From an uncultured Gammaproteobacteria bacterium (GTDB lineage Bacteria > Patescibacteriota > Microgenomatia > Levybacterales > GWA1-39-11): DNA of 64,000 nucleotides. The stretch covers positions 11,569 through 75,568 of the forward strand of contig CAYPEN010000005.1 of assembly GCA_964409875.1 (NCBI GenBank), in the 5' to 3' direction. A program made the translations under genes and the position numbers. This document shows positions 35,394-36,913 of this stretch, in pieces. The notes beneath the pieces were generated by a model, which did no database searches, was not told the origin of the DNA, and was given only the letters and a program-made list of their open reading frames with translations. Every line of letters begins with the position of its first letter. Within the stretch, counting starts at the first letter, position 1.

Positions 35394-35723
35394 ATGGCAT
35401 TCGTAAGCGATGTACAGGAAAGGGAAGTTATCGACAGGGACATTCTGCCACTTCAAATTGTCGATATCGAAGTGGCGCTGGATCTTTGCAACGATGTGAT
35501 GGCTATCATCAACAAGCAAATGGATCACCTCGAACAATCTGGCAATTCCGATCAGTCGGCGATGGCCGCGCTGCACGCGCTGCAACATCAATTTGCGCAT
35601 GACATGCGCAGTGATTTGACCCGTGACAACATGCCTCATGTGCGCGAGTTCATCGTGACCTATGCGCCGCAGGTGAAGCGTTATTACGAATCGGGCGAAG
35701 TGCCTCCCTTCATTCAGGGCTGA
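35394..35723 (+). CDS. Hypothetical small acidic protein, candidate antitoxin for the downstream zeta-like toxin
   Basis: 109 aa, ends 12 bp before the zeta-toxin-family gene on the same strand. Confidence 0.3.
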   Translation: MAFVSDVQEREVIDRDILPLQIVDIEVALDLCNDVMAIINKQMDHLEQSGNSDQSAMAALHALQHQFAHDMRSDLTRDNMPHVREFIVTYAPQVKRYYESGEVPPFIQG

Positions 35724-35734
35724 CATGAGATTAC

Positions 35735-36913
35735 ATGGATAGTAATTCAAAGCACCATCTAACACCTGCAGATCACGAACACCGCTATCTCACTCGAATA
35801 AAGCCCCGCTATTTGGATGCGGTGATTCCGGCCGCGTCTCCGCGCGCAATTATTCTTGGTGGGCAAAGTGGTGCCGGCAAAAGCATCATCGCTGAAGCGG
35901 CCATGATGGAGCTGGGCGGGGCCACCTCAGCAGTGCGCATCGATACCGATGCACTGCGCACCTTCCATCCTAATTACGAAGACCTCGCCAAATCCGGCAA
36001 AAAGGCCAGCAACGAAACGCAGTACGACGCGCAGCGGTGGCGCGATCGGCTCGAAACCGACGCGATCAACAGCCGCCGCAACCTTGTTATCGATACAACG
36101 CTCGGGTGGCCGGATTCCGCGGTTGAAACAGCGCAACGATTGCAAAAGGCCGGGTATCAGGTTGAGGCGCGCGTCATCTCGGCGCACAGCGCGGAATCGC
36201 AACTGGGTACCGCTGCCCGGTATTTCGAGCAGGTCCTGCACAAAGGCGCCGGCCGCTGGGTTGATCGCGAGTATCACGATTCAGTTTACAACCGCGTTCC
36301 TCAATCGCTCGAAGCATTCGAGCAGAAAAAGTTGGTCGCGGCGATTCATGTAATCAATCGCGAAGGCGACGCCGTACATTCGCAAACGCTTGATTTGTCG
36401 AAAGCCTGGTCAACCGAAAAAATGGCATCACAAGCGCTGCGCGAGAATCGCGAGTCCAGGGTTAAGGATCCGGCCGTCGTGTCCAGGCACTTCAAAGGCT
36501 GGGATGCGCTCGAAAAAACCCTCGACGTTCTACAGGTATCAGGAAAAGACCGCGAGGATCTAGCCGCGTTGCGGCGCGAGCATGAATTGGAACTGCTGGG
36601 CAAAGTACAAAAGCGAGGCGAAAAGGCCGAGGCGTTTTTGAATGAAAAACCAGTCGATGCGCTGCGCCGATTTCCCGATGATGAGAACGTTAAGAATGCG
36701 TTTGTGGTACTCAATGAGGCCGTCAAATTTGCCAAAACGATGGAAAATAAAGCGCTTCAACAGCTCGTTGTTCAAGACGTAAGGCGTCGCCTTGCCGACA
36801 GCCTGGACACAGGAAAGGAAATTCCAAAGGTTGCGACGCGAGACTACGACCAGCTATCCAGAAACCTGGAGCAGCGGGGGCCAACCAAAAAAGACGATGG
36901 CCCGGAGCGATAG
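35735..36913 (+). CDS. Zeta-toxin-family P-loop kinase with ~150-aa C-terminal extension
   Basis: Walker A ILGGQSGAGKS matches the zeta toxin ILGGQPGSGKT core. Followed by a D..D-containing segment, then a long charged coiled-coil-like tail. Confidence 0.55.
   Translation: MDSNSKHHLTPADHEHRYLTRIKPRYLDAVIPAASPRAIILGGQSGAGKSIIAEAAMMELGGATSAVRIDTDALRTFHPNYEDLAKSGKKASNETQYDAQRWRDRLETDAINSRRNLVIDTTLGWPDSAVETAQRLQKAGYQVEARVISAHSAESQLGTAARYFEQVLHKGAGRWVDREYHDSVYNRVPQSLEAFEQKKLVAAIHVINREGDAVHSQTLDLSKAWSTEKMASQALRENRESRVKDPAVVSRHFKGWDALEKTLDVLQVSGKDREDLAALRREHELELLGKVQKRGEKAEAFLNEKPVDALRRFPDDENVKNAFVVLNEAVKFAKTMENKALQQLVVQDVRRRLADSLDTGKEIPKVATRDYDQLSRNLEQRGPTKKDDGPER

Follow-up and report, generated by a model that had tools for sequence, protein, structure and literature searches.

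Does the toxin of a plasmid-borne zeta-type toxin-antitoxin (TA) pair stay in the cell that makes it, or can it leave with the plasmid during conjugation? The question is raised by two adjacent genes on contig CAYPEN010000005.1, analysed here in a window of 64,000 nucleotides (nt), the whole stretch to which all coordinates refer. The window is a conjugative plasmid of the IncU/PromA-like kind. Its plus strand encodes a small acidic protein of 109 amino acids (aa; 35394..35723), predicted to be an antitoxin or immunity protein, followed by a zeta-family kinase of 392 aa (35735..36913), each with an ATG start. The two genes very probably form a zeta-type TA pair, as predicted from homology and gene arrangement. 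Three features set the pair apart: the lost arginine of the GTXR motif, a new family of partner proteins, and a private helical extension that carries a relaxase-type terminal motif. By its sequence, this motif makes the toxin a credible substrate of the conjugative type IV secretion system (T4SS). The composite reading, a TA pair whose toxin is exported, is put forward tentatively, at a level of confidence a little short of even.

A conserved gene pair for a zeta-family kinase and a small partner

Both genes are real and not chance reading frames, because their order, orientation and short spacer are kept on every sister contig. A search of 5.8 billion protein clusters returned six full-length relatives of the 392-aa protein (391-393 aa, 52-100% identity) and 13 clusters related to the small open reading frame (ORF). 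Wherever a contig carries a full-length kinase relative, the small ORF directly precedes it in the same orientation, at a distance of about 11-21 nt; in the window, 11 nt separate its stop from the kinase start. The comparison covered six sister contigs, five of them with readable DNA and the sixth represented by gene calls alone. Among these, the zeta proteins share 52-83% identity and the small ORFs 33-81%, and both proteins are kept along their entire length. A first-pass annotation, made from the letters of the sequence, had placed the two ORFs exactly at these positions and had called the smaller one acidic. Both statements hold, the small protein having an isoelectric point of 4.62 and 18 aspartate and glutamate residues against 8 lysines and arginines.

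Ahead of the small ORF, the plus strand carries a -10 box (TATACT, 35359-35364) and a Shine-Dalgarno sequence (GAGGG, 35381-35385). The pattern TATA.T is invariant in an alignment of five upstream regions. Judged by these elements, 35359..35385 is likely the promoter and ribosome-binding site of a two-gene operon; a generic promoter scan made no call there. An Rfam search over 34800-37200 found nothing real. PLSDB holds no near-identical DNA to the window, and a tblastn search of it with the small ORF gave no match even at E<=1. Among species-representative genomes the clade was not found, the single match being an unrelated kinase with 28% identity.

The kinase core occupies residues 1-285 (35735..36589, plus strand) and has the zeta/PezT fold. 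It contains the Walker A motif GGQSGAGKS (residues 42-50; 35858-35884), an IDTD motif with the catalytic aspartate (residues 69-72; 35939-35950) and the sequence DTTLGW (36092-36109). The first-pass annotation had proposed a zeta/PezT-family P-loop kinase, and both sequence and fold bear this out. The Zeta_toxin model PF06414 matches residues 33-214 with E=1.4e-45 and 155.7 bits (cutoff 22.3), covering profile positions 13-193 of 199. A phmmer search of the sequences in the PDB retrieved only PezT (1.7e-19) and zeta (1.9e-19). The phosphotransferase fold is colinear with that of both proteins; fold comparison gave 28.8 for zeta (1gvn_B, 264/272) and 25.9 for PezT (2p5t_B, 243/244), followed by AvrRxo1 (16.4, 232/329) and ng_zeta1 (13.1, 208/390). 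Two other architectures were ruled out: an EzeT-like cis-antitoxin, since the kinase starts at about residue 10 with no N-terminal extension, and an ng_zeta1-like arrangement with a rewired kinase topology and a C-terminal oligonucleotide/oligosaccharide-binding (OB) fold domain.

Functional residues of zeta, taken from the literature (PMC3062530; PMC6362051), were mapped through a HMMER alignment and an alignment of 19 sequences. Zeta K46, D67, T118, T128, R158 and R171 are kept as K49, D72, T122, T132, R162 and R174, of which K49, D72, R162 and R174 are invariant across the 19 homologues. Zeta E100 is conservatively replaced by D104. By these residues, the kinase looks catalytically competent. 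The motif of zeta that binds UDP-N-acetylglucosamine (UNAG) is the GTXR motif, G117-T118-x-R120-T121, in which R120 contacts the UDP phosphates (PMC6362051; PMC3062530). Here the same position reads T121-T122-L-G124-W125, so that the threonine is retained and the arginine is gone. Glycine or alanine stands at the place of R120 in 6/6 clade members, and zeta T121 is replaced by an invariant tryptophan. Relatives outside the clade retain lysine or arginine at the R120 position. Arg103 is invariant in the clade and alanine in other homologues, which may reflect a compensating change for the lost arginine. The UNAG-kinase core that the first-pass annotation described is therefore right for the catalytic residues and wrong for this substrate-binding arginine, so a UNAG-kinase mechanism of toxicity cannot be assumed. 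By analogy with its relatives, the protein is most likely an ATP-dependent small-molecule kinase acting on a nucleotide-sugar cell-wall precursor, with the exact substrate uncertain.

Beyond the core, a helical extension runs over residues ~290-381 (36602..36877, plus strand) and is private to the clade. AlphaFold2 confidently predicts five helices in it (296-303, 306-312, 317-333, 339-359 and 371-381), and the extension is conserved in the six full-length relatives. It ends in a disordered tail, GPTKKDDGPER plus the stop codon (residues 382-392; 36878..36913, plus strand), where the prediction confidence pLDDT falls below 50. Within this otherwise variable tail, G382, P383, E391 and R392 are invariant. 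An extra C-terminus of about 150 aa had been noted at the first pass. It is indeed foreign to canonical zeta toxins; since the canonical fold runs to about residue 285, the additional part comes to only about 100 residues.

Several identities for this tail were tried and rejected. It is not a known or widespread domain, having no Pfam match, none among PDB sequences and only its own family in 1.84 billion representatives. In that search, the tail profile retrieved its own family, one 103-aa fragment and one adhesin (P0049, 4062 aa), the last being a YadA adhesin and coiled-coil noise. Comparison with the tail of a 387-aa Xanthomonas protein was negative, and an XVIPCD was ruled out because the tail is poor in glutamine, with 4.8% Q and 2 Q among its final 40 residues. 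At the domain level, the tail is also no BID-like copy of part of a relaxase, since only about 25 terminal residues match, and no BID Pfam match was found in the 392-aa protein. The extension also differs from the OB-fold domain of ng_zeta1.

The 109-aa partner is predicted to fold into a bundle of three helices. Helix 1 bears the invariant motif IEVALD.CN, and the C-terminal part the motif V.REFI..Y.P..K. At the first pass the protein had been described as a plausible epsilon-like antitoxin. What remains of that description is a conserved upstream partner whose modelled structure is compatible with a fold like that of epsilon/PezA; in sequence it resembles neither. The small ORF has no Pfam, NCBIfam or PADLOC match, its profile retrieved neither epsilon nor PezA among PDB sequences at E<=10, and no DNA-binding domain was detected in it. 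Its family is homologous to a 94-aa hypothetical protein encoded 6 nt upstream of the Xanthomonas 387-aa zeta gene (hhalign 88.8%, E=2.5e-6), with LT.DN...YAP..K as the common motif. The partner encoded beside the zeta kinase P0009 was also considered and is not homologous.

Antitoxin and immunity genes are often met as orphans. Homologues of the small ORF, too, occur without an adjacent zeta gene (L015 4263-4592 and 7684-8013; L016 2926-3252; L017 553-879). Two of them share one contig, and another adjoins a HepT/MNT toxin-antitoxin pair. These solo copies sit in non-plasmid contexts and may be orphan antitoxin or immunity genes.

A relaxase-type terminus on the kinase

For the TA toxin VbhT, transfer through a conjugative T4SS has been shown, and the clue to it was a C-terminal domain matching that of the plasmid relaxase (Harms et al. 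2017, PMC5675462). Because of this precedent, the zeta tail was compared with the relaxase of the window. This relaxase is a MOBP protein of the Nic/TraS type (348 aa; 2484..3530, minus strand; Pfam Relaxase PF03432). The relaxase closes with the 25 residues AEQLRDQLAERLPSTQRGKDKGPER (2487-2561), which are similar to the end of the zeta protein. Aligned by hhalign, the tail profile and the relaxase share a short terminal match of 24 columns with E=0.055, in which the relaxase reads ...QLRDQLAERLPSTQRGKDKGPER and the zeta protein ...QLSRNLEQRGPTKKDDGPER.

The shared ending is rare. The window yields 549 stop-to-stop segments with a length of 60 aa or more; ER is the ending of four, and two of these are spurious overlapping frames. 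Of the ~37 real genes, only those of the relaxase and the zeta protein encode a product that ends in ER, and no other product ends in GPER. Endings of the form [DG]xER occur in 0/718 unrelated segments drawn from the window and all loci. Relaxase homologues end in ER in 69/120 cases, mostly as D-x-E-R; GPER is found in only 4/120, all in the clade closest to the window relaxase.

Additionally, the two termini track each other within plasmids. In the window, KDKGPER on the relaxase is matched by KDDGPER on the zeta protein. The sister-plasmid pairs, assigned indirectly and not by reading the contigs themselves, are DRGPER with KDKGPER (P0050/P0002), GRGPER with DRGPER (P0054/P0005), GDIER with DDLER (P0053/P0003) and RDGER with SGDER (P0056/P0004). 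The pattern is thus GPER/GPER three times, DIER/DLER and DGER/GDER. In a C-terminus-anchored BLOSUM62 alignment of the last 25 residues, the five cognate pairs score 25-44, compared with a background maximum of 16-21 over 715 C-termini, and in none of the five does a background terminus attain the observed score (0/715). Shuffles matched for composition attain it in 0-28/2000 cases. With the last four residues removed, 4/5 cognate pairs still fall within the top 1.3% of the background.

Related plasmids show similar endings on other transfer proteins. In the IncU plasmid pMBUI7 (L022, KC170284.1), ER ends occur in 4/227 segments, and the four are the Nic relaxase, both TraC-type primases (TraC3 and TraC4) and KfrC, encoded within 19716-25550 and 30964-32031. 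The Poisson probability of at least four ER ends among its 38 genes is ~2e-5 to 2e-4. The PromA plasmid pYKBM022 (L023, LC623920.1; 11585-18152) has a TR terminus common to the relaxase TraS (DEQTR) and the primase TraO (AERTR). On the same plasmid, two hypothetical proteins with a KfrB domain, whose genes adjoin the primase and coupling-protein genes, end in GIER and TLER. Relaxases, conjugative primases and FicT are known protein substrates of conjugation systems (PMC8406263). Such shared endings may mark, in MOBP/MPF_T plasmids generally, the proteins that the T4SS transfers.

An ER ending is also seen in independent zeta lineages whose tails are unrelated, namely P0009 (...DGPER) and P0010 (...QKER); in both, the zeta gene directly follows a coupling-protein gene. 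The pair on the P0006 contig comes straight after the relaxase gene, as in VbhTA. In the window, the presumed receptor of the motif is a VirD4/TraG-type coupling protein (630 aa; 50579..52471, plus strand) with Pfam matches to T4SS-DNA_transf (E=1.6e-118), TraG-D_C and TrwB_AAD_bind. The [DG]xER-COOH tail, here GPER, is a candidate recognition signal for this coupling protein. That the toxin is a T4SS substrate is a serious possibility, judged at slightly less than even odds. A role beyond simple addiction had been suggested at the first pass, and the likeness of the toxin's C-terminus to that of the plasmid relaxase, which that annotation did not contain, supports it.

Plasmid setting of the pair

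The plasmid carries a complete VirB-type T4SS at ~40.2-50.6 kb, a MobC-like gene (3521-4060), minus-strand IncC/ParA and KorB genes (4398-6157) and an RPA-type initiator (6718-7608). The plasmid also carries a resolvase, an 18-kb cargo block and a block of small minus-strand genes that contains the gene of SSB, a protein that binds single-stranded DNA, followed by the zeta pair. After the pair come further minus-strand genes, including ArdC-N and DUF3560, and then the T4SS, so that the pair sits between the SSB block and the VirB operon. The replication initiator is at most 48% identical to that of any PLSDB plasmid, and the window is not close to any of them. With ~40% identity in each case, the relaxase is related to Nic of pMBUI7 (IncU) and to TraS of pYKBM022 (PromA), and these plasmids both share the korA-incC-korB-mobC-nic layout.

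A core of the origin of transfer (oriT) is predicted at 4081..4121 on the plus strand, assigned by pattern and inverted-repeat searches and by analogy. It consists of a small inverted repeat (4081-4100) and, 14 nt after it, an exact IncP-type nick sequence, TATCCTG|C (4114-4121), with the predicted nick at 4120/4121. It lies in a 340-nt intergenic region directly upstream of mobC-nic, as in the IncU/PromA relatives; the chance of such a match in 340 nt on one strand is ~0.018. By the same analogy, the plus strand is predicted to be the transferred strand, entering toward increasing coordinates.

For the genes on the minus strand, namely korB, incC, rep, the SSB block, ArdC-N and DUF3560, the predicted incoming strand would then be the template. 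Early-expressed genes of the leading region lie near oriT and are oriented so that the incoming T-strand serves as template (Samuel et al. 2024, PMC11541004), and the orientation of the minus-strand genes fits this rule. The zeta pair lies 31.3 kb from the predicted nick, on the plus strand and opposite to the flanking SSB, ArdC-N and DUF3560 genes. Coded on the predicted transferred strand, it should therefore not be transcribed before second-strand synthesis. The first-pass placement of the locus in a leading or early-entry region is thus only loosely right: the distance is large, the orientation contradicts the T-strand rule (PMC11541004), and early transcription is unsupported.

Between the small ORF and the divergent operon of a 187-aa protein and SSB, the block 35108-35288 (plus strand) folds as single-stranded DNA into one long imperfect hairpin. 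On the plus strand its folding energy is -46.7 kcal/mol (z=-2.37, 4/200 shuffles as good), and on the minus strand z=+0.18. The block is conserved at the DNA level in 4/5 sister plasmids, with compensatory changes in 12/53 predicted pairs and no Rfam match. Because the plus strand is the predicted T-strand, the hairpin may act in the manner of Frpo/ssi, as a promoter or priming site on single-stranded DNA from which the minus-strand SSB operon is driven. The space from the divergent 187-aa gene to the small ORF holds no small gene.

What lies between the zeta gene and the T4SS operon differs from plasmid to plasmid, so that this slot forms a variable island (window 36964-39734; L006 7315-11552; L008 3311-4653; L010 7323-10496). 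In the window it holds small minus-strand genes with DUF3560 and ArdC-N. In L006 it holds a Gabija-like set of an OLD-TOPRIM ATPase and a UvrD helicase, in L008 an SNase nuclease followed by a DUF3560-methyltransferase fusion and ArdC-N, and in L010 genes of no recognised kind together with a BrxR/WYL regulator.

Elsewhere in the window, an abortive-infection-like Abi_2 gene (E=1.2e-53) lies at 402-1379 and a DUF4917 gene (E=2.5e-42) at 11319-12425, both on the plus strand. The cargo at ~14000-32200, between the resolvase gene and the SSB block, includes an AcrB-type resistance-nodulation-division pump (20107-23256), an old-yellow-enzyme/pyridine-nucleotide oxidoreductase fusion (26292-28439), several short-chain dehydrogenases/reductases, a hydrolase and TetR regulators. 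A second cargo block (55896-59659) carries a TetR regulator and a MacAB-like ATP-binding cassette efflux system, and a phage-type integrase gene is found at 62269-62895. Directly after the coupling-protein gene, 52468-53661 (plus strand) encodes a 397-aa LPD7-domain protein that ends in ...DDLREQSVGR. LPD7 is a domain associated with large polyvalent proteins. IncU/PromA plasmids have a primase at this place, and no TraC-type primase gene was seen in the window.

Competing explanations and known systems

Under the export reading, the pair is a two-gene TA operon of the epsilon/zeta type on a conjugative IncU/PromA-like plasmid. The 392-aa kinase would, by homology, act as a toxin by phosphorylating a nucleotide-sugar cell-wall precursor. 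The 109-aa protein would bind and neutralise the kinase, most likely by blocking its ATP site in the manner of epsilon and PezA. The VirD4-type coupling protein would read the GPER tail, and the toxin would pass through the conjugative T4SS into recipients along with the DNA, as VbhT does. Because the antitoxin gene would lie on the non-transcribable strand of the incoming DNA, rescue would be limited to recipients that complete second-strand synthesis and keep the plasmid.

Several points weigh against this proposal. Toxicity, neutralisation, substrate, export and biological consequence are all inferred. The hhalign match between tail and relaxase reaches only E=0.055 over its 24 columns, and a hidden Markov model (HMM) of the 50 C-terminal residues of the relaxase fails to retrieve the zeta proteins, so that the two proteins have in common a short linear motif, not a domain. 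The co-variation comes from only five plasmids that share ancestry, with the sister pairs assigned indirectly, and the GPER group cross-matches, which leaves specificity shown only for the DIER/DLER pair. An ER-ending lineage (P0021-P0030) belongs to an element in which no T4SS is visible within 13 kb. The homologue on a Xanthomonas MOBF plasmid is without tail mimicry, and the idea of such mimicry is therefore not general. No published description of an ER-COOH terminus as a T4SS signal was found, and the ending could serve another shared purpose. Finally, the GTXR arginine is absent in the clade, and no DNA-binding or autoregulatory element, whether omega or a helix-turn-helix (HTH), was found at the pair.

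The main rival is an ordinary intracellular epsilon/zeta module for plasmid addiction by post-segregational killing, in which the toxin stays in the cell and the extension is a clade-specific structural or regulatory addition. The ER terminus common to toxin and relaxase would then result from a protease or adaptor, from contact with the relaxosome, or from functionless recombination of 3' ends. All evidence for a TA pair applies equally to such a module, and plasmid zeta toxins are classically stability modules (PMC3062530; PMC10532202). The shortness of the motif, the negative domain-level searches and the long tail of the Xanthomonas relative, which does not mimic its relaxase, also suit it. 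It leaves unexplained why the terminal residues are invariant in a variable disordered tail, why the relaxase and the primases of related plasmids have the same terminus, why the ending tracks with the cognate relaxase, and why independent ER-ending zeta genes adjoin coupling-protein genes. Addiction confined to the cell is nonetheless a substantial minority possibility. A second alternative is an interbacterial killing effector with its immunity protein in the manner of X-Tfe/X-Tfi, which would serve mainly to kill competitors through the T4SS independently of DNA transfer, with the small ORF shielding donor and kin. Zeta_toxin is among the toxic domains of X-Tfes, with immunity genes upstream (PMC6536674), a Lysobacter relative (P0007) has a Gln-rich XVIPCD-like end, the solo copies of the small ORF in non-plasmid contexts resemble orphan immunity genes, and the locus is near a T4SS. 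The tail is not Gln-rich, however, and its terminal motif is that of DNA-transfer proteins. The T4SS, moreover, serves plasmid conjugation, together with a relaxase, a predicted oriT and a coupling protein, and is no chromosomal X-T4SS. An effector of this kind is improbable.

A role in host defence, with the kinase released on phage infection and arresting the cell, would agree with the content of the island downstream of the pair, where sister plasmids hold Gabija-like OLD-TOPRIM and UvrD genes, a BrxR/WYL regulator and nucleases, and with the Abi_2 and DUF4917 genes of the window. Transient zeta expression also inhibits amplification of phage SPP1 (PMC10532202). No PADLOC model rose above noise for either protein, the only hit being AbiEi at E=0.014, which is noise, and the relaxase-like terminus is left unexplained. 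The defence genes nearby differ between plasmids and the pair does not, which places the pair in the plasmid backbone and counts against an abortive-infection or anti-phage module; we consider one very unlikely. A similarly low probability is given to a kinase that is no toxin against cell-wall precursors and has another small-molecule substrate, such as NAD in the case of AvrRxo1, and that, delivered or expressed, would reprogramme recipient metabolism or counter a nucleotide-based defence, with the small ORF as a chaperone or regulator. The missing GTXR arginine bears on this reading, as does a fold closer to zeta and PezT than to AvrRxo1.

The export reading can be carried further. [DG]xER-COOH could be a new coupling-protein signal of MOBP Nic/TraS-type systems, common to relaxases and primases and repeatedly gained by zeta toxins, so that the injected kinase poisons recipients that degrade the plasmid or do not establish it. 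This extended version is on the unlikely side. If true, it would amount to a pre-emptive, protein-delivered addiction that penalises restriction or CRISPR defence. The most interesting feature of the locus is the short, mutable C-terminal motif that is common to the relaxase and, in relatives, to primases. If it is a coupling-protein signal, it offers a simple sequence rule by which to recognise the proteins exported by a large class of conjugative plasmids with a broad host range. It would then also place a second toxin family, next to FicT, among the few natural protein substrates of conjugation, and would bear on the role of TA toxins that are co-transferred with the DNA. Beyond the streptococcal systems, zeta toxins have hardly been studied, and a 2023 review of PezAT states that experimental knowledge on non-canonical homologues is lacking (PMC10532202). 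A proteobacterial zeta kinase without the UNAG-binding arginine possibly has a new substrate, and its partner represents a new putative antitoxin family common to widespread Xanthomonas plasmid operons.

Compared with known systems, the pair resembles epsilon/zeta of pSM19035 and PezAT of Streptococcus pneumoniae in having the partner gene immediately upstream of the toxin gene, here with the 11-nt spacer. Unlike them, it has glycine in place of the GTXR arginine (TTLGW) and ~100 extra C-terminal residues. Its partner lacks both sequence similarity to epsilon/PezA and an HTH, no omega repressor gene is present, and the host element is a proteobacterial conjugative plasmid. The nearest annotated relatives are the "zeta toxin family protein" genes and upstream ORFs of Xanthomonas, Ralstonia and Pseudomonas plasmids, with 35% identity over residues 1-259. 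The Xanthomonas relative is of similar length (387 aa), has a homologous small ORF 6 nt upstream and likewise lacks an omega gene. This operon type has been flagged as atypical and untested (Martins et al. 2016, PMC4861877). In contrast to the window protein, the Xanthomonas protein keeps a canonical GTMR, and its tail beyond ~residue 260 is unrelated and unlike that of its own MOBF relaxase.

Long zeta-family toxins are also found in other Gram-negative bacteria. The ng_epsilon1/ng_zeta1 pair of conjugative plasmids of Neisseria gonorrhoeae combines a toxin of 401 aa that has an extra C-terminal domain with a non-epsilon antitoxin (Rocker et al. 2018, PMC5923241). A plasmid of Pseudomonas syringae, pS7-1M_68717 (L014 1883-3397), encodes a 504-aa zeta homologue whose kinase domain starts at ~residue 206, and this long N-terminal extension is reminiscent of the EzeT cis-antitoxin architecture. 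Among the X-Tfe/X-Tfi proteins of the killing T4SSs of Xanthomonadales, some X-Tfes join a Zeta_toxin domain to a C-terminal VirD4-binding domain and have an immunity gene upstream. The window protein differs from these in showing no XVIPCD features and no Gln-rich tail, and in its setting of plasmid conjugation instead of a chromosomal X-T4SS. The Lysobacter sp. K5869 homologue (WP_215835278.1, 466 aa) ends in the Gln-rich QQAQQQQNPKTM, a hallmark of XVIPCD, and a 398-aa homologue (P0011) has precomputed Pfam matches to Zeta_toxin and the KfrB domain. From these two cases, zeta kinases appear to have been fused several times to different delivery- or plasmid-related C-terminal modules.

The closest parallels to the proposed export are VbhT/VbhA on the Bartonella plasmid pVbh and PezT-BID on Chelativorans plasmid 1. 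In both, a TA toxin on a conjugative plasmid lies beside a VirB/D4-type T4SS and a relaxase and has a C-terminus like that of the relaxase (PMC5675462). VbhT is experimentally translocated into recipients (PMC5675462), whereas export of the window toxin is predicted from sequence. The element shared in those systems is a whole BID domain of ~100-140 residues, nearly identical to that of the relaxase; here the likeness covers only the last ~25 residues, no BID is detected and the extension is private. In its toxin family, the window pair matches the PezT of Chelativorans and not VbhT, which is a FIC protein.

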